Shown here piece after piece: positions 44,387 through 54,012 of a stretch of 64,000 nucleotides of DNA. The first letter of the stretch is position 1. Every line of letters begins with the position of its first letter. The DNA is taken from the IMG/VR virus record IMGVR_UViG_2974557979_000001. The stretch is one strand, 5' to 3'. The translations under genes and the position numbers were made by a program. The notes under the pieces were generated by a model, which worked only from the letters and a program-made list of their open reading frames with translations, made no database searches and was not told the origin of the DNA. This DNA is from a virus. Its lineage: Duplodnaviria; Heunggongvirae; Uroviricota; Caudoviricetes; Straboviridae.

Positions 44387-44654
44387 GTCTAGATGTCAGT
44401 TTAGCGATAAAGTCGAAAATGTGTTGTGAACCATCTTCAACATAATGACGGTATGCAAGCAAAGTTGATACGTGACACATATCGACCGATTCAACTTTGA
44501 TGCTTGATGCGATCATTGTATCATCATTTCCATATCCGTCAATATCACGGAGTACCATTTCTTCAGTCGGGAAACGCTGAAGGAGTGACGCTTCCCGATC
44601 TGATACCAGAGCAACTAAGCGATTATGTCGCGTGTTGTACGATAATATTTTCAT
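44352..44654 (-). CDS. hypothetical protein
   Basis: ORF. Confidence 0.4.
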   Translation of the reverse strand: MKILSYNTRHNRLVALVSDREASLLQRFPTEEMVLRDIDGYGNDDTMIASSIKVESVDMCHVSTLLAYRHYVEDGSQHIFDFIAKLTSRLDEEEYYDLFG

Positions 44655-45913
44655 TTCAATTCCACCGCGTAAACATCAGGTTCAGGGGCTTTGTGTACGC
44701 GCATATCTTTACCGCATACCGCATAAGCCGGACAGTTACGACAACCGTTATGATCCTTATTACCGATCAGTTCATTACGGAACTGTTTGGTTTTCGGATG
44801 TTCCCAGATATCTTTGATAAAGTCGCTGGCTTCCAGGACGTTAAGCCCTTCTGACCATCCACCCTCGACCCAACGTTCGGTAAAGGAACAGGGGAAGAAT
44901 TCACCCTTTTCATTGATGTACGAACTAAACATAGTAGCTTCGCAATCTTCCGCATACTGTTTGTACTGTTCAAAATTTTCATGTCCTTCCATAGCCTCTA
45001 CAAAGGCCGGAGCGGAACAGGAATCAAAACCGAACCCTACACCAGATTCAAGGCAATACTCTACCAGAGCTTTATACTGCTCGCGTGTAACGGTATCCCA
45101 GTTCTTCCCACGACCTTTTTGTTTCAGACCCAGGAATACGATCGCGTTAACTTGTTTCAAGCGCGGATCATTCTTTACAGCATCAACCACGTTAAACGCG
45201 TCATCATAGGTTTTAGAGCTAACCATGAAATGAAGGTTGATTTGCTGTTGTCCGGCTTCTGCAAGATTAGCCACTGAATTAAACGCTACATCGAATCCAG
45301 CATGTTTGTATACTGATACCGCAACAGCCCCAGCAACAGCCGCTAAACGCGCTGCAACGTCTTTTGATACATCAGCAATGGTAAGGTTTGGTACAATGCC
45401 TTTAGAACGCGCATAGGCCATCATATCAAACATATCAGGGTTTGTTTGTCCCTGTGCATCAGCACCGAGGGCGCATTGTGTTAACCAGGGCATTTTATCA
45501 ATGATAGATTTGAATGTATCAAGATCCATATTGAAGCCGTTAGGGTTATTAGACTTGTAGCAGAAACCGCAAAGTTTACCAGCAGGGCCATTGCATTTAG
45601 TTGTGATCTCGATATCGAGAATTTCGGGGAATGGGGCATAGGTAGGATCAGTTTCGAACGATATTCCCCAGCGAGCAAACTCACCAGTTTTAACGTTGAA
45701 ATTGTAGTTATACCACTTAGAGCGAGCGTAACGGATATCACCATCTTGATATATGAACAGGGTAGGAGCTTTCAGAACAGTTTGTGCGTTATTCATAATA
45801 TAATTCTCAAAATCTAACATGGGATTGGAAGACAGCGCGAGCGAGACTTTCATTATCAAACGGTATTGATTGGTGTTGTCCTTTGCTATCAATGTTAACG
45901 CGCCAAAATTCAC
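44651..45913 (-). CDS. putative radical-SAM-like Fe-S enzyme (atypical cysteine spacing) with Cys-rich C-terminal domain
   Basis: ILDIEITTKCNGPAGKLCGFCY resembles the radical SAM strand-loop motif but with CX8CX2C spacing; C-terminal DSCSAP...PCSF...NGCRNCPAYAVCG is SPASM/twitch-like; start uncertain. Confidence 0.45.
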   Translation of the reverse strand: MNFGALTLIAKDNTNQYRLIMKVSLALSSNPMLDFENYIMNNAQTVLKAPTLFIYQDGDIRYARSKWYNYNFNVKTGEFARWGISFETDPTYAPFPEILDIEITTKCNGPAGKLCGFCYKSNNPNGFNMDLDTFKSIIDKMPWLTQCALGADAQGQTNPDMFDMMAYARSKGIVPNLTIADVSKDVAARLAAVAGAVAVSVYKHAGFDVAFNSVANLAEAGQQQINLHFMVSSKTYDDAFNVVDAVKNDPRLKQVNAIVFLGLKQKGRGKNWDTVTREQYKALVEYCLESGVGFGFDSCSAPAFVEAMEGHENFEQYKQYAEDCEATMFSSYINEKGEFFPCSFTERWVEGGWSEGLNVLEASDFIKDIWEHPKTKQFRNELIGNKDHNGCRNCPAYAVCGKDMRVHKAPEPDVYAVELK

Positions 45914-46009
45914 TAGAACAATTTTCAGTGGAGTAGTTCAACAGCGTTACCGTTTTATTCTTTTCCAAAAATACGCGTTTGTCAATCTCTGTTTTGATTA
46001 CGTGTTCCA

Positions 46010-46267
46010 TCATTTTACCCACCGTTGTTTGCGTTCGTCAGCCAGTTCTTTTTTGTACACCTTGATGTATTCGCCGTTCAAGGCACGGAGATTTGAAAAT
46101 ACACGATTGAAAAGATTTTTCTTTTCTTTGTATGCCGGAGACATACGGATCGATTCAATAGTCATACCCATTTCATTTTTAGGATACGCTCGTAACTCTG
46201 CGCCGATCTCATCAATCCATTTTTGGTACAAATCACGCTTTTCTTTGTACTGCTCAAAAGTCAACAT
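46010..46267 (-). CDS. hypothetical protein
   Basis: ORF. Confidence 0.4.
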   Translation of the reverse strand: MLTFEQYKEKRDLYQKWIDEIGAELRAYPKNEMGMTIESIRMSPAYKEKKNLFNRVFSNLRALNGEYIKVYKKELADERKQRWVK

Positions 46268-46493
46268 ATAATTTCCTCACATTTCGTTGGGTTCAATATA
46301 ACCCTATAAAGAACCAAACGCAAGAGTTATTTGTACTTCATAAAGAATTTAACTGCTTCTTCCGGTGTCATATCGTCAGAGAACAACCCGAAGAAAGTAC
46401 GATGATGATCTTTGTACGAAATGTTAAGTGGGTTCAATAAACATCTAACCTCTTCAACCCATTGATAGTATTTTTTGCTGAATGGTTGATCTC

Positions 46494-46691
46494 TCATTCT
46501 TCGTCCCCTTGCGCGTAGTATTCACACACTGCATCTTCTGGGGTGCAACCGTCCGAGTAAAGAGCATACATCAGATCTTCGTCATAATCAGAGGAACCTA
46601 GCATATGTTGAACAGAGCGTTTCCATTTGTTGTAATCTTTTTCGCTCTGGGTTTCGCTGTTTTCTGATTTAAGCATTTCGTACATGTTCAT
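46494..46691 (-). CDS. hypothetical acidic protein
   Basis: ORF. Confidence 0.35.
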   Translation of the reverse strand: MNMYEMLKSENSETQSEKDYNKWKRSVQHMLGSSDYDEDLMYALYSDGCTPEDAVCEYYAQGDEE

Positions 46692-46833
46692 AGGAATCTC
46701 CCGTAGTCGGTTGCAACATCTTCCGGATCCGCATCAAGTTCGTACAGTTCGCGAGCTAGTGCGCTGGGTTTAATATCGCGCCCTAAGTGGGCGCTAACAT
46801 TACGTAGCCATTTCATATAGGGTTCGAATTTGT

Positions 46834-47084
46834 TCATTTTATACGTACCGCGTTAAAAGCCTGGTTCCGGAGATCATACGCTTTTTCAAGCTGTTCTGTA
46901 GTGAACAGAGGACTATCAGAGTTTACTGTGAAACTGCAAATGGTTTTGTTGTCGGCGTTTACTTCTTCAACAACGATTTCATAACCCCAGATCCCGCTGT
47001 ACTCACATTTCACGTTCCGGTACTTGATGTAAACTGCTACAACATCTTCTTTTTTGTAGTTCCGGCTTTTGTAGATAATTTCCA
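46834..47084 (-). CDS. hypothetical protein
   Basis: Start set to MEIIYK after RBS GGAGGA; the track ORF extends into translated leader. Confidence 0.45.
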
Positions 47085-47135
47085 TGATATCCTCCTTCGT
47101 TTCGATGTGTGTATAATAACAGATCGGGGTTATCG
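47085..47135 (-). promoter_or_regulatory. PeSL-like promoter/leader (minus strand)
   Basis: Minus strand TATTATACACACATCGAAACGAAGGAGG. Confidence 0.4.
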
Positions 47136-47155
47136 ATTTTAGCAATTCGTGCTAA

Positions 47156-47434
47156 TTATGCCATTTTCTTAGCGATTTTCCAGGCGGCTTTGAATGCCGG
47201 AACATCTTCAATATCAACCCAGAAACCAGCACCAAAACCATCATCGTAGCAAGGGCAACCGTCGCAGTAATTTTCCCAGGTCATCACTTCACCACCAACA
47301 GAAGCACCAGTTTCCATAGCGCGTAACGCATCTTCAACTTTTTCCAGTTTTTCTGCGTTGTTGTCATAAATGATGAAGTACCATTTTCCGTTGTATTCGT
47401 TACCCAGTTTGATTGCTTCGCGAACAAGTTTCAT
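47156..47434 (-). CDS. hypothetical protein
   Basis: Start set to MKLVREAIKL. Confidence 0.45.
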   Translation of the reverse strand: MKLVREAIKLGNEYNGKWYFIIYDNNAEKLEKVEDALRAMETGASVGGEVMTWENYCDGCPCYDDGFGAGFWVDIEDVPAFKAAWKIAKKMA

Positions 47435-47503
47435 GATGATTTCCTTTTTGTCTGTTTCGTTTCGATGTATGTAAGATACCACAACCAGATTTTAATGCAA
47501 CAT
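47435..47503 (-). promoter_or_regulatory. PeSL-like promoter/leader (minus strand)
   Basis: Minus strand TTGCAT-16-TATCTT then ACATACATCGAAACGAAACAGAC. Confidence 0.45.
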
Positions 47504-47836
47504 TTATTTTGCTTCGAGTTCGATATTTTTCCATGTTTTCATCGGAACCCCTATCGCATCCCAAAACTTAACATCTTCTGCTGCAATCAGAGTAAAGAAG
47601 ACTCCAGTTTTCCAGTATTTCCCGTTTCTGATTTCGTTTGCGATCTCGTTCAACTGGTCGCAAAAATGTTCAGTCCAACTAACATCACCATCCCAGCGAG
47701 AACGTGGATTGTATAGAGAAAATATGAAACTATCAATATAAGAAGATTTTCCGGTAGAGACTCCCATCAAAACAGCCAGGATTGTGCGAACTGCATATAA
47801 ATTCTGAACCTCAACACTTCTCGTTTTAATAGTCAT
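47504..47836 (-). CDS. hypothetical protein
   Basis: Start set to MTIKTRSV after RBS GAGGAA. Confidence 0.45.
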   Translation of the reverse strand: MTIKTRSVEVQNLYAVRTILAVLMGVSTGKSSYIDSFIFSLYNPRSRWDGDVSWTEHFCDQLNEIANEIRNGKYWKTGVFFTLIAAEDVKFWDAIGVPMKTWKNIELEAK

Positions 47837-47914
47837 TTCATGATTCCTCTGTTTTGTTTCGATGAATGCAATATAACAAAACCCCTCACCATTGGCAAGG
47901 GGTTTTTGCAAAAA
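47837..47914 (-). promoter_or_regulatory. PeSL cassette (minus strand)
   Basis: Minus strand GCAAAAACCCCTTGCCAATGGTGAGGGGTTTTGTTATATTGCATTCATCGAAACAAAACAGAGG: hairpin with TTGCCA-17-TATATT. Confidence 0.55.
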
Positions 47915-48172
47915 TTATCGTTTGATTGGGGTATTATCTATAACCCGTTGAATTTCCGAACGCATCGTAGAATACTGGCACAATTCAGTAAGCGCCCGAT
48001 CCAGGTGCATCATAGCGTAAGAAAACTCTTTTCCGCATTTGTCGCATCTAGCGTATAAATGTAAATGAATTCGCCCGATCCCATCTACCTGACTATATTT
48101 CTGGAATATGTAAGGATCTGCACCTCGATAGCCAGTAGCTTCGTGCTTACACTCTCGTTTGAACCATGACAT
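47915..48172 (-). CDS. hypothetical Cys-containing protein
   Basis: CKHE...CDKCGKEF. Confidence 0.4.
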   Translation of the reverse strand: MSWFKRECKHEATGYRGADPYIFQKYSQVDGIGRIHLHLYARCDKCGKEFSYAMMHLDRALTELCQYSTMRSEIQRVIDNTPIKR

Positions 48173-48746
48173 TAATAATATCCTTGTACGTTGAATCGGT
48201 CACACAACAATTTTTTGTTTGGTTAGTATCGTTTTGGATAGAATGCAACATAGCGGTAATCATGTTTAGGTTATTTTGCATCATTTCCGCGCTCATGAGA
48301 ACTTCCATACGCGCACGTAAGCGTTTATTTTCTTCTTCCAACTCAACCATACGGTCATATGCTTTGATGCGCTCTAAGGGCATATCAGGACGCTCTTTGA
48401 GTACGCGAGCACGTTCAACCTCACAAGCATGATTTGCTTTCCAGTGGTTCGATTCCGCTTCAAATTTATTAAGACGGCGGATCTCTTCAACCAGCTTTTT
48501 GATCATGTGTGGATCCATCATGTCGATGAATTTCATCAAACAATTGGATTTTGTTTTGTTGTCAGCACCAGACCAAGACGAATTATACGTAACTGTAAAC
48601 GCGCGGCCCATTTCATCAACAACCCCGATCTTGTTATCATCGGTGATTGTAGCCGCCCATTTCTCCCGCATGGCTGTACAGGTTCCGCTGGCGACATTAT
48701 GCAACTTGTTTAATGTCGCATCATCAAATACAATTTCATCACTCAT
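48147..48746 (-). CDS. hypothetical protein
   Basis: ORF. Confidence 0.45.
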   Translation of the reverse strand: MSDEIVFDDATLNKLHNVASGTCTAMREKWAATITDDNKIGVVDEMGRAFTVTYNSSWSGADNKTKSNCLMKFIDMMDPHMIKKLVEEIRRLNKFEAESNHWKANHACEVERARVLKERPDMPLERIKAYDRMVELEEENKRLRARMEVLMSAEMMQNNLNMITAMLHSIQNDTNQTKNCCVTDSTYKDIINVMVQTRV

Positions 48747-48753
48747 ATATGCC

Positions 48754-49149
48754 TCACATAGATTTCAAAATACGCAGCAGCGCGTTAGTAAAGATATCAG
48801 GAACACAACAACCAAACAACTTATGATTCATCAGCGCTAATTTCATGCTGTGATTTTCGGTATATCGCCCGTTCTGGATCCCCCAGGCAACTACATGACC
48901 AGGTTCATGAATAACTAAGTTAGTGAGAGTAACGGTCATGCGCTCTTTATCATTGATCATGAATGAATAGCAGTAACCGGATCCAATATCGCCGTAAAGG
49001 TTAAGGTCTTTCAATTTCCCTTGCTCATGCAAGCGTTTCATATGAACTGCACATGCATGATTAATAGTCATTTCGTCATCCCTAGCCCAGTCATCAATAC
49101 CAGAGGTATAACGAATATTGAAATAGTTAGTCAGTTCATTTGATACGCT
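48754..49149 (-). CDS. putative zinc metallopeptidase-like protein (HExxH)
   Basis: VIHEPGHVVAW HExxH motif; start set to the internal Met MSVSNEL, which largely removes the overlap with the upstream zinc-finger gene. Confidence 0.45.
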   Translation of the reverse strand, partial: SVSNELTNYFNIRYTSGIDDWARDDEMTINHACAVHMKRLHEQGKLKDLNLYGDIGSGYCYSFMINDKERMTVTLTNLVIHEPGHVVAWGIQNGRYTENHSMKLALMNHKLFGCCVPDIFTNALLRILKSM

Positions 49150-49330
49150 CATTAGAAACCTCACTTTTATAAAATTCTTTACCAGACCCATTACAGCTAC
49201 TGCATTTGGGGGAACGGTTGTTATCATACCGCCCCGAACCGTTACATGCAACACATTTCCGTAATTTCCAGCCATACACGAACCTCATGTAATAATCGGT
49301 TCGTGCGGCCTTGCGTTCATGGAAATTCAT
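49136..49330 (-). CDS. DnaJ-type zinc-finger protein (CxxCxGxG x2)
   Basis: CVACNGSG ... CSSCNGSG; a second protein of this type is at 53231..53566. Confidence 0.4.
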   Translation of the reverse strand: MNFHERKAARTDYYMRFVYGWKLRKCVACNGSGRYDNNRSPKCSSCNGSGKEFYKSEVSNERIK

Positions 49331-49527
49331 GCTTTGTAAACCTGAACCAACCACATTTCGATGTTAGGCGCGTAAGTAACGTTTACCTTATGCATAGTGC
49401 GGTATTTGTAAGCGGCTTTGTACGCATCGAGTTCAGTCGGAACACAGAAAGAAAAACCGTTATCATAGCGTTCTGCGTTAGAAACTTCACAACCAACTAC
49501 AGCGGCAATGTTTTTATTCATGTTCAT
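49327..49527 (-). CDS. hypothetical protein
   Basis: Start set to MNMNKN after the leader. Confidence 0.4.
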   Translation of the reverse strand: MNMNKNIAAVVGCEVSNAERYDNGFSFCVPTELDAYKAAYKYRTMHKVNVTYAPNIEMWLVQVYKA

Positions 49528-49603
49528 GATATTTTCCTTTCTCTGTTTCGTTTCGATGTGTGTAATATAACAAAGCCCCTGCACTAATGCAAGGGCTTTT
49601 TGA
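49528..49603 (-). promoter_or_regulatory. PeSL cassette (minus strand)
   Basis: Minus strand CAAAAAGCCCTTGCATTAGTGCAGGGGCTTTGTTATATTACACACATCGAAACGAAACAGAGAAAGG: hairpin with TTGCAT-17-TATATT. Confidence 0.6.
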
Positions 49604-50518
49604 TTATTTTGGTAATTTTTCGATGGTTGCTTTCAACTCATTGATTTTATTAAAGAGTTCATCGCTATATTTCATCAACTCACTACGGCGTTTTTCGGCC
49701 CACTTGATCAGGAATTCATGAGAATCTACACCATACGTGTAACCTTCTGCACTCAGTTGAATACGAGCACGGGAACCATAATCAACAGAACTTTGTTCAA
49801 TGAGAAACTTAACCGCATCAAGCAGGGCTAAATCTTCATGACTTACCAATATTCCTTCTGCCTTTGGAAGATCCACAACTTCATCCTGGATGAGTTCACG
49901 GCGGGTTGTTTCTTCCAGTGTTTCATGATTCTGGATCATCGTTTCGACCGGATCCTTTGCCACGACTGGTTTATTTTCACCTACTTCTTCCAAAAACATC
50001 AACATCCATCCAGGAATTTTAGTCCGGAAAGAACTTTGTACTTCACTGGTGCATGAATTTCCCAGAATGTGGATCGCGTTACCATGCATATCAACTTTAT
50101 TGATATAGATAACGTTCTGCTGTTCCTGTCGGTTGCTACCATAAGAAAGGAAGCGGCGTAACGATGTGTTATGACCATACTTCCCTAAATCGATTTCAGC
50201 CAGGCAATCAATGATCCCACGGTTAGAAACCTTGTAACGCTTACCCTGTTTGAAAAATAACGATTCTTCCAGGTGAGTAGGGGTAAACTCTTCATAAAGA
50301 ACATAGAATTCTTTAGGAATTTTGCGCTGAACCAGACTCAGTTTACAATTATTAGAAGGAACAATAACAGCGTGAATGTTTCCTTCTGCGTCACACATAG
50401 CTTGCATTACTTGCGGATAGTAAAGATGGTCTTTCTTGCAAGTATAGCTATGGATACGACTCTGCCGTTTTTTGAAGTACCATTTACCAGTTTCAAAAGG
50501 CGCTGTTGTAAAATTCAT
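49604..50518 (-). CDS. hypothetical protein (304 aa)
   Basis: ORF. Confidence 0.5.
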   Translation of the reverse strand: MNFTTAPFETGKWYFKKRQSRIHSYTCKKDHLYYPQVMQAMCDAEGNIHAVIVPSNNCKLSLVQRKIPKEFYVLYEEFTPTHLEESLFFKQGKRYKVSNRGIIDCLAEIDLGKYGHNTSLRRFLSYGSNRQEQQNVIYINKVDMHGNAIHILGNSCTSEVQSSFRTKIPGWMLMFLEEVGENKPVVAKDPVETMIQNHETLEETTRRELIQDEVVDLPKAEGILVSHEDLALLDAVKFLIEQSSVDYGSRARIQLSAEGYTYGVDSHEFLIKWAEKRRSELMKYSDELFNKINELKATIEKLPK

Positions 50519-51042
50519 TTTGCATTCTCATACATAGTTAAAATTGCTTGCATATGTTCCGGTGATTGTGGAACCCCTGCAAAGTTCACTTTCAAAAAGA
50601 AATTCAACCGATCTTTTATGTTGCACTCATCGAGTCCAAGCGCTGGTAATGAAATGTTTTCAAAAGCACGTTGTTCATGTCTTTCCATTTCACCCCAAAA
50701 CAAACGGGAACCGTTAGGCATCGGTATTCCAATTTCATTGTTCCAGAATTTCATGATAGTTGTCAAGCGTTGTTTTCCGTCGATGACTTCTACCCATCGA
50801 GATTCGTTGAATTCACTATCAACCGCGATCGCAATGATACCACAAGGAAACCCAGTAATCAAAGTTTTCATGAAAGCATCTTGCTCTTTCTGCTTCCACA
50901 CGTAGGGCCGCTGATAGGACGGATTCAGATCCAGATCGTTGTTCTTGAACCAGTGAATGTAACTACCAACCATGATCGCATGATCGCGACTTTGGAAAGT
51001 TTTTAACTCACGAATACGGTTTCTTACAATTTCGTCTGTCAT
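50515..51042 (-). CDS. DUF262 / ParB-like nuclease-NTPase domain protein (standalone)
   Basis: SYQRPYVWKQKEQDAFMKTL...GFPCG...VIDGKQRLTTI carries the DGQQR-type signature of DUF262 (GmrSD N-domain family); no HNH/DUF1524 partner domain. Confidence 0.62.
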   Translation of the reverse strand: MTDEIVRNRIRELKTFQSRDHAIMVGSYIHWFKNNDLDLNPSYQRPYVWKQKEQDAFMKTLITGFPCGIIAIAVDSEFNESRWVEVIDGKQRLTTIMKFWNNEIGIPMPNGSRLFWGEMERHEQRAFENISLPALGLDECNIKDRLNFFLKVNFAGVPQSPEHMQAILTMYENAK

Positions 51043-51365
51043 TATAAAATCACCATCCAGTATATAATCGTAATCATAACCGCTACAGTGAAACATATTG
51101 CAGCGTACACCCGCGCATTATGAACCTGTGTTTTCAATTCTGCGATCTCTTGATCCTTTTCGCTTTCAAACTCTTCGCGAGTACCATAATACCCAGGATC
51201 GTTAGCAGTTGCCAATCTAACCGCATCTTTTTCAACCAGCGTTGCATAACCGCTTTTTATTTGTGTCGCCCCGTACCATCCACCCCGATCGTTGTTAATG
51301 ATCAGGTGATCGCCTTTTTCGTTATGTTTTGACTCACCAATTACAATAACCCGTTTACCATTCAT
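51042..51365 (-). CDS. hypothetical C-tail-anchored membrane protein
   Basis: C-terminal TM helix VYAAICFTVAVMITIIYWMVIL; ATGA overlap with the DUF262 gene. Confidence 0.45.
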   Translation of the reverse strand: MNGKRVIVIGESKHNEKGDHLIINNDRGGWYGATQIKSGYATLVEKDAVRLATANDPGYYGTREEFESEKDQEIAELKTQVHNARVYAAICFTVAVMITIIYWMVIL

Positions 51366-51393
51366 AATATGATCCTAAAAGGGGCCGAAGCCC

Positions 51394-51651
51394 CTATTTT
51401 GCGTTCTTCTGTAGATAATCTAACAGATTTCCGCTTTGGTGTAAATCTAAAACTTTAGAAAACTTCTCTGCGTTTCTTTCGTTTGTGAGTTCGTCGAAAT
51501 GCCATACACCATCATCAGCTATTAACGCGCCAGGTGATGAACCTGTTTCTACATCACGGGAAAGCGCAAGCCCCAGAGGGTGTAAGATTTCGCGGTTAAT
51601 GCGCCAAACAAGGCCCATTTCAGATAGAGTATTAAAATCGACGTATTTCAT
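51394..51651 (-). CDS. hypothetical protein
   Basis: ORF. Confidence 0.4.
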   Translation of the reverse strand: MKYVDFNTLSEMGLVWRINREILHPLGLALSRDVETGSSPGALIADDGVWHFDELTNERNAEKFSKVLDLHQSGNLLDYLQKNAK

Positions 51652-51652
51652 A

Positions 51653-52036
51653 TTATGCCTTTGGTTTCACACCGTAGGCCAACATACCGAAACGGTGATC
51701 GTTGTCTGCATCTTTAAACAGAACTTCGTTACCATCAATGCAGATAACCTTTGCTTCCGGATCGATGTATGGAAGCAACCACAAAGGGATCAGGCGTAGG
51801 CCGCTATGTTCATCCCAGCGACTGAAATTAAGTTCTTCCAGTTCATCAAGGGAAAGCTCATTAGGATCGATATAACGGAACCATTTGGTATTTTTGAGGC
51901 GTTCGGGGAATGTTACGATTTCTTCATAGCCGAATTCAGCACTCCATGAAGAGTAAACAGTGACTTCGGATGCTTTGGTTAAAACAGCATCGCGAATTGA
52001 TTTGCAGATATCGATTAAATTCAGTTGATTTTCCAT
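51653..52036 (-). CDS. hypothetical protein
   Basis: ORF. Confidence 0.45.
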   Translation of the reverse strand: MENQLNLIDICKSIRDAVLTKASEVTVYSSWSAEFGYEEIVTFPERLKNTKWFRYIDPNELSLDELEELNFSRWDEHSGLRLIPLWLLPYIDPEAKVICIDGNEVLFKDADNDHRFGMLAYGVKPKA

Positions 52037-52046
52037 GATATATTTC

Positions 52047-52454
52047 TCATCTTGCTAAAATTTTAGGCAACAGTTGCCCCATTGTTTTACGTGCATGTGA
52101 CGGAATCTGTGAGATCGGGACATATTTAAAATCATCCATTTCACGTATAGTCCGTCCGTTCTTAACGAAAGTTGATGCACAATAGCATTCTTCCGCTACT
52201 GGGTAATCTTGCCCTACATAGAGGAATAAAGCAAGGTTTTTTGTTTTCGTGTAATCGAGAACACCCAGACTAACCAATTCCTCCGCGAACACTTCAAATC
52301 CTGTTTCTTCGAAGCATTCGCGGATCGCCGCGTCAATATGAGTTTCGCCCTTTTCAACATGCCCCTTCGGAATATCCCAATGGGGCGTTTCAGTGGCATG
52401 GCCCATCAACACGGCACCATCTTTAACAAAGATAATACCCGCTGATAGTTCCAT
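52047..52454 (-). CDS. Nudix hydrolase
   Basis: Nudix box GHVEKGETHIDAAIRECFEETG. Confidence 0.8.
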   Translation of the reverse strand: MELSAGIIFVKDGAVLMGHATETPHWDIPKGHVEKGETHIDAAIRECFEETGFEVFAEELVSLGVLDYTKTKNLALFLYVGQDYPVAEECYCASTFVKNGRTIREMDDFKYVPISQIPSHARKTMGQLLPKILAR

Positions 52455-52700
52455 TTATTCACCTGCAAAAGCGTTATCAAATGCTTTAAGTGCGTTGTTA
52501 GCGCGAGCACTGGCTTTTGTCTCACCAGCATGAATGTTTTCGAAGAAAGTACGTTTCCACACTTCGCGGCGAATAGATTCATGTTCCAGACTGTTTTTGT
52601 GATCACTGCGAATCTGTTCTTCCATGTTGTAGCGGTACAGATCGAGTTCTGCGTTTAATTTCTGTTCTAATGCCTGTGCAAATACATGTTCAATATTCAT
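52455..52700 (-). CDS. hypothetical protein
   Basis: ORF. Confidence 0.4.
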   Translation of the reverse strand: MNIEHVFAQALEQKLNAELDLYRYNMEEQIRSDHKNSLEHESIRREVWKRTFFENIHAGETKASARANNALKAFDNAFAGE

Positions 52701-52948
52701 TTTGTATAGCCTATTTCAGATTTAAGGTTTTCGAGGGTGGAGTGATAAACAACACTCCCTTCGTGTCGAGTATACCATACTTTTCCGTTCTGGTTACACT
52801 CATTCATTACATTTTCATCTAAACCAGGGATCGGCTTCATGCTGGGAGAAAACGCGATAGACATCATTTGTTCTGCGCTATCAGCAAACCCACAAGGGAA
52901 AACAGATCCAGTTGGTTTATCAAGATACATCAACTCTACTTTAGCCAT
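52697..52948 (-). CDS. hypothetical protein
   Basis: Start set to MAKVELMYL. Confidence 0.4.
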   Translation of the reverse strand: MAKVELMYLDKPTGSVFPCGFADSAEQMMSIAFSPSMKPIPGLDENVMNECNQNGKVWYTRHEGSVVYHSTLENLKSEIGYTK

Positions 52949-53947: not shown

Positions 53948-54012
53948 GATAGCCTCCTTTGTTTCGACAAGGCCAATATAACAAAGCCCCTGCACGAATG
54001 CAAGGGCTTTTT
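53948..54012 (-). promoter_or_regulatory. PeSL cassette (minus strand)
   Basis: Minus strand GAAAAAAGCCCTTGCATTCGTGCAGGGGCTTTGTTATATTGGCCTTGTCGAAACAAAGGAGG. Confidence 0.55.

Follow-up and report, generated by a model that had tools for sequence, protein, structure and literature searches.

A minimal standalone ParB-DUF262 protein of a Klebsiella Slopekvirus and its possible role in counter-defence

DUF262 is a sensor/nucleoside triphosphatase (NTPase) module common to GmrSD/BrxU, SspE, DndB/DndI, Menshen, Dazbog, PD-T4-2 and Schlafen fusions. The gene described here, CPT_Matisse179 (gene 179), encodes a 175-amino acid (aa) protein that appears to consist of this module alone, and it lies in a 64,000-nucleotide stretch of DNA from a virus of the Straboviridae (IMG/VR record IMGVR_UViG_2974557979_000001), the whole of which is referred to as the window. 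The motifs that define DUF262 are QRxxxW, DGxQR and FxxxN, and DNA binding in SspE, GmrSD, DndB and the Menshen protein NsnA is carried by a helical domain, ParBDB (PMC12065111). DUF262 proteins can act as hetero-pairs, such as GmrS1 and GmrSD2 of E. coli ECOR17, in which the nuclease-less GmrS1 acts through the other DUF262 protein (PMC12373910). Short single-domain ParB-fold proteins are common in phages, and a role as independent functional units has been proposed for them (PMC12704722); the ParB-like activators of phage thymidine dioxygenases (5mYOX clade E) have no DNA-binding domain and act via their partner enzyme (bioRxiv 10.1101/2025.08.14.668559). In the searchable literature, no paper was found that characterises a phage standalone DUF262 protein. 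What is new here is a minimal, effector-less, phage-borne DUF262; the domain label itself is already present in some records, which name the gene product 'DUF262 domain-containing protein', and one record calls it 'DefenseFinder protein'.

The 3-kb region around the DUF262 gene is 100% identical to Klebsiella phage Matisse (KT001918; Straboviridae, Slopekvirus), so that a window coordinate equals the Matisse coordinate minus 46702, and 98-99% identical to KP15, KP27, Miro and approximately 100 other Slopekvirus genomes. All genes at the locus are on the minus strand. A mechanical list of open reading frames (ORFs) gave a 193-aa frame at 50515-51096, holding SYQRPYVW...GFPCG...VIDGKQRLTTI. We assign the true start of gene 179 to the ATG at 51042 (MTDEIVRNRIRE..., MTDEIV...) and not to 51096, because three lines of evidence agree: (i) the annotation of Matisse, (ii) a GGTGA Shine-Dalgarno-like sequence 9 nucleotides (nt) upstream of the ATG, and (iii) the N-termini of the homologues of RB43, P22-like and Erwinia phages, which coincide with this start. 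The features of the locus are collected in Table 1.

Table 1. Positions of gene 179, its motifs, the neighbouring genes and the regulatory elements in the window.
Feature	Position	Strand	Remarks
CPT_Matisse179, minimal standalone ParB-DUF262 (GmrSD_N) protein	50515..51042	-	175 aa
DUF262 motif I, YQRPYVW (QRxxxW), residues 43-49	50896..50916	-	Y43, Q44, R45, W49 invariant
DUF262 motif II, DGKQR (DGxQR), residues 88-92, predicted phosphate-binding centre	50767..50781	-	D88, G89, Q91, R92 invariant
DUF262 motif III, FLKVN (FxxxN), residues 149-153	50584..50598	-	N153 invariant; aligns to BrxU motif III
CPT_Matisse180, predicted soluble N-terminal part and C-terminal tail-anchor	51042..51365	-	107 aa; PHROG 7472, function not assigned
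Predicted C-terminal transmembrane segment of the 107-aa protein, residues 86-107	51045..51110	-	Kyte-Doolittle
CPT_Matisse178 (p304), function not assigned	49604..50518	-	304 aa; start overlaps DUF262 stop
PeSL-like composite terminator stem-loop and sigma70-like promoter, closes gene block	49564..49599	-	TTGCAT-N17-TATATT
Second PeSL-like copy, opens gene block	53975..54010	-	1 mismatch in 36 nt
GGGGC-UUCG-GCCCC hairpin, just upstream of the 107-aa gene	51380..51395	-	terminator in Matisse annotation

The Pfam profile GmrSD_N/DUF262 (PF03235) matched the 175-aa protein with 69.1 bits against a cut-off of 33.2 (E 7.1e-19), which puts the assignment far above chance level. This was the single Pfam match, with no second domain, and a DUF1524/HNH domain was found by Pfam neither in the protein nor in either of the flanking genes; PF02195 and helix-turn-helix (HTH) profiles gave no match at E<=1, and the protein is too short for a canonical ParB. 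In an alignment of 30 homologues with identities down to 25%, residues Y43, Q44, R45, W49, D88, G89, Q91, R92, T94, T95, N153 and G156 were invariant, and E85, K90, F149, Q159, S160 and H163 were at least 90% conserved. All three DUF262 motifs are thus present and invariant or nearly so, and motif III is followed by a conserved GVPQSxEH that is specific to the family. The initial annotation of the locus, made from the DNA letters, had recognised a standalone DUF262 protein lacking a nuclease domain by its motif residues; the assignment is genuine, and these residues are conserved.

A PDB search with the profile of the homologue alignment returned BrxU (7p9k, 5e-9) and also DndI, SspE and related DUF262 proteins, the alignments taking in motif III as well as motifs I and II. 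The AlphaFold2 (AF2) model of the protein (predicted local distance difference test score, pLDDT, 90) has the ParB/sulfiredoxin (Srx) fold, its best matches being BrxU, SspE and ParB-type domains that bind nucleoside triphosphates (NTPs). Fold comparison gave 8.9 for BrxU (136 residues aligned), 8.5 for pNOB8 ParB-N, 7.7 for SspE, 7.0 for PadC, 6.1 for DndI, 6.0 for sulfiredoxin and 5.9 for KorB, and Foldseek returned ParB and Noc in the form bound to cytidine di- or triphosphate (CDP or CTP) as additional matches. Just one helix (residues 161-174) lies past motif III in the model, and no counterpart of the helical ParBDB domain was found in the model or in the match to NsnA, of which profile positions 45-196 of 385 are covered. 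The 175-aa protein is thus the ParB-DUF262 NTP-binding module in complete but minimal form, with nothing added; binding and hydrolysis of NTP are predicted from motif conservation only. There is nothing mechanistically surprising in its sequence. In PADLOC, the top matches were sensor subunits of defence systems (Menshen NsnA, 3e-18; PD-T4-2_A, 1.7e-13), in PHROGs the protein falls into phrog_1583, function not assigned, and NCBIfam had no match for any of the genes 178, 179 and 180.

The comparison with the described systems showed likeness in the module and differences in everything around it. NsnA, the best PADLOC match, shares QRxxxW, DGxQR and FxxxN with the phage protein, as do PD-T4-2_A and DzbA of Dazbog, and its likeness extends as a contiguous alignment over phage residues 17-165 (NsnA profile positions 45-196). 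However, NsnA is approximately 385 aa long, carries a C-terminal ParBDB and acts together with an ATPase (NsnB) and a nuclease (NsnC), whereas the phage protein ends approximately 20 residues past motif III and has no such neighbours; the operon partners of defence sensors (the ATP-binding cassette ATPase NsnB with NsnC, DndCDE, or SspABCD) are absent from the phage locus. When compared with BrxU/GmrSD (7p9k), SspE (6jiv) and DndI (9jfl), the phage protein lacks an insertion of approximately 100 residues between motifs II and III, and both the middle helical domain and the DUF1524/HNH nuclease of BrxU/GmrSD are missing. GmrS1, likewise a DUF262 protein without a nuclease, sets a precedent for cooperation between DUF262 proteins, but it is host-encoded, adjoins its partner and is required for defence. 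Sulfiredoxin and the phage short single-domain ParB-CTPase-fold proteins likewise present the ParB/Srx fold as a standalone unit; the surveyed phage proteins (PMC12704722) are PF02195-based and approximately 100 aa long, whereas the protein of gene 179 belongs to the DUF262 branch, has approximately 175 aa and carries its own motif set. The 5mYOX activators always adjoin 5mYOX and hypermodification genes, whereas no such genes were found near the phage DUF262 gene. Canonical ParB (PF02195, HTH and C-terminal dimerisation domain, with parS and ParA) resembles the protein in fold but no further. The extra domains and partners that define GmrSD/BrxU, Menshen NsnA, DndB/SspE and canonical ParB are absent, and the 175-aa protein is none of these.

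By tblastn, the protein was found in 300 of 50,697 phage records, and most phage genomes in the collection are therefore without the gene. The Slopekvirus copies are mostly 100% identical. Homologues occur in Pseudotevenvirus and Karamvirus (RB43, Lw1, RB16, GAP161 and others; approximately 79% identity), Yersinia phage JC221 (73%), P22-like Lederbergvirus prophages and phages (46%), Erwinia Henunavirus (43%) and Krischvirus (RB49 group; 35%), and remoter ones in phages of Vibrio, Moraxella, Bacteroides and Caulobacter and in jumbo phages. A profile search of 1.84 billion cluster representatives yielded 409 proteins that match the whole module at E<=1e-30 and are either standalone (165-185 aa) or 250-290 aa long with a 100-130-residue N-terminal extension without Pfam match. 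A few relatives are tandem duplications of the mini-DUF262 module (P0049, 368 aa; P0114, 357 aa), and duplicated or paired modules suggest that the functional unit is a dimer. Two paralogous mini-DUF262 genes stand side by side in some relatives (tandem/paralogue example at locus L051, 4001-5094).

Among bacteria, scanned as one-genome-per-species assemblies, close full-length relatives were present in four assemblies only, namely those of Klebsiella grimontii, Serratia silvae, Citrobacter freundii and a Flagellimonas contig. The three enterobacterial relatives are likely prophages and were taken as such. The remaining bacterial matches are long DUF262 proteins that align just over residues ~25-107, the best non-prophage ones reaching no more than approximately 40% identity over 70-100 residues. 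With so few or partial bacterial matches, there is no sign of a recent capture from a host gene. The Flagellimonas relative, 78% identical to the gene of Matisse, is on NZ_JBHSCL010000010.1 ('Flagellimonas marina' CGMCC 1.15774), a 178,077-bp contig of a marine Flavobacterium assembly (locus L089); the content of the contig is like that of a complete Karamvirus/Pseudotevenvirus-type enterobacterial phage, and it is probably assembly contamination.

The ratio of non-synonymous to synonymous substitution rates (dN/dS) of the DUF262 gene between Matisse and the RB43/Lw1/CfP1 group was 0.08-0.11 (dN 0.13), which is comparable to the low level of the NudE Nudix hydrolase gene three genes upstream and is 2-4x below that of the other genes of the block. 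Within Slopekvirus there were three synonymous and no non-synonymous differences. The results show that the gene is under strong purifying selection (dN/dS ~0.1). It belongs to a stable phage-borne gene family that is spread over unrelated phages, and is not a remnant.

The initial annotation had considered that the gene might be widely conserved with a defined DNA-metabolism role. The first half was borne out, as the Slopekvirus-type gene is present in 109 records, compared with 111 for the core deoxynucleoside monophosphate (dNMP) kinase gene, and was deleted in one phage; the second half was not, since no DNA-metabolism role is known. A few records hold an RB43-type allele instead. The deletion is natural and was found in phage vB_KM5a1-KLB1 (PP444686), isolated on Klebsiella sp. 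M5a1. It spans 6.35 kb (window 44878-51230), from within gene 180, which loses its 3' part, across the DUF262 gene and p304 and on down to a radical S-adenosylmethionine (radical-SAM) gene; approximately 14 nt at the junction are common to both flanking alignments, and codon ~43 of the 107-aa gene is joined to the 3' end of the radical-SAM gene. Since KLB1 is viable without the DUF262 gene, the gene is not essential, and approximately 17 genes are dispensable on Klebsiella sp. M5a1. The radical-SAM gene, CPT_Matisse164 (window 44651-45796), encodes a protein with a SPASM domain and lies approximately 5 kb downstream on the same strand; it is partly lost in KLB1. The Matisse-type phage group has been reported to show unexplained DNA modification or restriction resistance (PMC5219037).

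Our tentative interpretation, to which we give a probability of roughly 0.4, is that the DUF262 protein is an autonomous NTP-binding switch or enzyme of ParB/Srx fold, produced early in infection, with a counter-defence role that interferes with DUF262-based immunity. The protein would bind NTP through its DGxQR centre and probably hydrolyse it. ParB-family domains dimerise on NTP binding, and the DUF262 protein probably does the same, which the tandem-duplicated modules would fit. It would act alone and, because it has no DNA-binding domain, its target would be a protein or a small molecule and not DNA. Since it copies, without an effector, the sensor/NTPase module of GmrSD/BrxU, SspE, Menshen NsnA, Dazbog and PD-T4-2, it could interfere with those systems in one of two ways, by drawing their proteins into dead-end hetero-oligomers or through competition for nucleotide or ligand, and the beneficiaries would be phages with unmodified or merely methylated DNA. 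The 107-aa and 304-aa proteins would be co-translated neighbours in this lineage only and not required components. The sensing of, or competition for, modified DNA that was first suggested for the protein is disfavoured, as it lacks the helical ParBDB domain that carries DNA binding (PMC12065111). Inhibition of host GmrSD-like enzymes, also suggested at first, may still apply, the slow and enzyme-like evolution of the gene speaking somewhat against it.

Three observations favour a counter-defence role: (i) the closest relatives are the defence sensors matched in PADLOC, (ii) DUF262 proteins can act as hetero-pairs, and (iii) the gene is patchily spread over unrelated phages (T4-likes without hydroxymethylcytosine, P22-likes, Henunavirus and jumbo phages), in accessory early regions. 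Slopekviruses have Dam and Dcm genes of their own (PMC5219037), and their DNA, being Dam/Dcm-methylated, is a possible target of type IV restriction. Several points weigh against this role. The slow, enzyme-like evolution and the invariant catalytic-type residues are somewhat untypical of arms-race inhibitors. As no closely similar host protein was found (at most approximately 40% identity over 70-100 residues), specific heterodimers with diverse host DUF262 proteins are doubtful. NTP binding, dimerisation and anti-defence activity are all predictions, early expression is deduced from promoter-like motifs and synteny, and no paper reporting anti-defence activity of such a protein was found in the searchable literature.

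We consider it unlikely that several unrelated phage families have domesticated an immune sensor/NTPase module as an early, broad anti-defence factor against GmrSD/BrxU, Menshen, Dazbog and SspE. If true, this would be viral mimicry of an immune sensor domain, by oligomer poisoning or by nucleotide/ligand competition, and the protein may represent a new class of counter-defence proteins working by domain mimicry. It may also be the smallest natural DUF262 unit, and then a convenient system for DUF262 nucleotide biochemistry. The DUF262 protein is a good and cheap candidate for studies of anti-defence activity or of the biochemistry of a nucleotide switch, and since Slopekviruses are candidates for Klebsiella therapy, accessory genes that affect host range are of practical value. 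Should the protein prove to be one more small NTPase that serves a housekeeping function during infection, the finding would be ordinary.

The invariant motif residues together with the family-specific GVPQSxEH, a dN/dS as low as that of the NudE hydrolase and the absence of a conserved partner gene could also be those of a standalone ParB/Srx enzyme, comparable to sulfiredoxin or SerK, which would spend NTP to modify or hydrolyse its target (a small molecule, a host protein, or a nucleotide pool or signal) or to nick DNA, and would have no direct link to DUF262 immunity. The proposal that phage short single-domain ParB-fold proteins are independent units (PMC12704722) is consistent with such an enzyme. 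This explanation is the main rival but is somewhat unlikely, as no substrate suggests itself, the sequence plainly belongs to the DUF262 type, the known members of which are NTPase sensors and not of the Srx/SerK type, and the gene is dispensable in KLB1.

The next alternative depends on the genes on either side. The stop codon of gene 180 (51044-51042) and the start codon of gene 179 (51042-51040) overlap by one base (TAATG), and the stop of gene 179 overlaps the start of CPT_Matisse178 as ATGA at 50518-50515; genes 180, 179 and 178 therefore form a translationally coupled string. The initial annotation had placed the ATGA overlap between the 107-aa gene and the DUF262 gene, which is wrong, since ATGA joins the DUF262 gene to the downstream 304-aa gene and the upstream 107-aa junction is TAATG. 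The tail-anchored nature of the 107-aa protein, on the other hand, is again predicted here. Its single hydrophobic segment comprises the last 19-22 residues, with a Kyte-Doolittle value of 2.53 for the last 19 (residues 89-107) and 0.24 for the next best segment, there is no N-terminal signal, and the homologues keep this layout with 0-3 residues after the hydrophobic segment.

The role of membrane partner that had been given to the 107-aa protein was not supported. Its family (phrog_7472) occurs in 173 phage records, all of the Slopekvirus/Pseudotevenvirus/Karamvirus group, whereas the DUF262 homologues of Krischvirus, P22-like phages, Henunavirus and others have unrelated neighbours: in Krischvirus kvi the gene upstream encodes a zinc-ribbon protein and comes after Dcm, in the P22-like UPF_BP1 it encodes a coiled-coil protein, and in an Erwinia phage an acidic 138-aa protein. 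The ORFs of 86 loci were clustered, and 116 neighbour proteins from 23 dereplicated lineages were analysed with Pfam. Except for Ead/Ea22 and a second DUF262 (two proteins each), no neighbour family recurred, there was no recurrent ATPase, and no DUF1524/HNH nuclease was found apart from unrelated single cases. An attempt to relate the 107-aa protein to the N-terminal extensions of the 250-290-aa homologues, as a Rosetta-stone link, failed (hhalign probability 0.1%). Since the 107-aa family is confined to one group, its link to the DUF262 gene reflects inherited synteny and translational coupling rather than a conserved two-component system. The DUF262 protein would work without a dedicated conserved gene partner, and the membrane protein is a lineage-specific co-translated neighbour.

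The distribution of p304 is narrower than that of the 107-aa family (119 records, four protein clusters). It had no Pfam, NCBIfam or PADLOC match, PADLOC also had none for the 107-aa protein, and PDB sequence searches with either protein gave nothing significant. The AF2 model of p304 (pLDDT 63) has weak fold matches only. In RB43, p304 is cut down to a 41-aa remnant, and in Prick1_ER44 (locus L088, PP738780, 3094-5825), a phage with a Slopekvirus backbone, an unrelated 102-aa gene stands in its place; the DUF262 gene is intact in both. The idea of a split gene, in which p304 would be the missing C-terminal part of a longer DUF262 protein, was rejected after hhalign of the p304 family against 412-465-aa DUF262 proteins of viral contigs (probability 0.3%).

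The three coupled genes between the hairpin and the PeSL terminator, the label 'DefenseFinder protein' and the fact that the PADLOC matches are sensor subunits could point to a phage-carried exclusion or defence module, in which the DUF262 protein, in minimal likeness to Menshen, Dazbog or PD-T4-2, senses incoming or competing DNA or a nucleotide signal and activates the tail-anchored and/or the 304-aa protein as effector. This is distinctly unlikely. The membrane protein is absent beside DUF262 homologues outside one phage group, p304 is dispensed with in RB43 and Prick1_ER44 and has a model of low confidence, and hhalign found no relation of the membrane protein to the N-terminal extensions or of p304 to the C-terminal regions of long DUF262 proteins. 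Furthermore, the DUF262 protein is without a ParBDB DNA-binding domain, and the lytic early-left operon, in which the gene lies in P22-like phages, is not a usual site of defence genes expressed in lysogeny.

Even less probable, in our judgement, is a function as accessory or regulatory subunit of a phage DNA-modifying enzyme (Dcm or Dam), for which the activators of thymidine dioxygenases, which are of ParB fold and without a DNA-binding domain, set a precedent (bioRxiv 10.1101/2025.08.14.668559). In Krischvirus kvi (locus L004, MN850615, 1496-3016), the order is Dcm, zinc-ribbon protein and, as the last gene, DUF262, with overlapping or adjacent stop and start codons; a DNA methyltransferase gene lies a few genes upstream in Henunavirus-type loci, and Slopekviruses encode Dam and Dcm. 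However, no relative of the kvi Dcm or of the Erwinia methyltransferase was found anywhere in the 64-kb window, their relatives occurring only in the loci of their own lineages, no methyltransferase family is enriched among the neighbours of the 23 lineages, and the precedent proteins are of the PF02195 and not the DUF262 type. Of the gene contexts found, the kvi string alone gives a hint of a connection with DNA methylation.

The Pfam alignment over just profile positions 4-78 of 199 could suggest that gene 179 was taken up from a host as a GmrSD-type restriction gene and is now a fragment in decay. This is effectively ruled out by the selection and family data, since motif III is there, the compact architecture recurs in hundreds of proteins of equal length, dN/dS is ~0.1 with the protein 100% conserved in most Slopekvirus genomes, and there is no closely related host gene.

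The region had also been described as an accessory region bounded by promoter-early stem-loops (PeSLs; PMC2839356, PMC4122927), which agrees with our results. Two minus-strand copies of a 36-nt PeSL-like element, AAAGCCCTTGCATT(A/C)GTGCAGGGGCTTTGTTATATT (0 expected by chance), enclose a block of approximately 13 genes that includes the DUF262 gene. Each copy contains a putative promoter, TTGCAT-N17-TATATT, with the -35 inside the stem rather than after it. The region is plastic, and one copy is a recombination breakpoint: in Prick1_ER44, the segment ~49601-52945, which runs from nudE through the DUF262 gene, is swapped for ~72%-identical alleles of RB43/Karamvirus type, and one breakpoint falls exactly on the PeSL (49564-49601). 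This swapped block fits a PeSL-mediated module exchange. In P22-like phages, the DUF262 gene belongs to the early-left operon, where it adjoins ead/Ea22 and abc2 (anti-RecBCD) lies three genes upstream of it. The gene lies in an early-type accessory block, and its early expression is deduced from this context.

The three-gene string 180-179-178 has the hairpin ahead of it and the stem-loop/promoter element behind it. The hairpin, a perfect tetraloop structure between genes 181 and 180, is followed by UUUUAGGA. A distance of 9 nt separates it from the Shine-Dalgarno sequence of the 107-aa gene, so that stabilisation or processing of the mRNA is another possible role.

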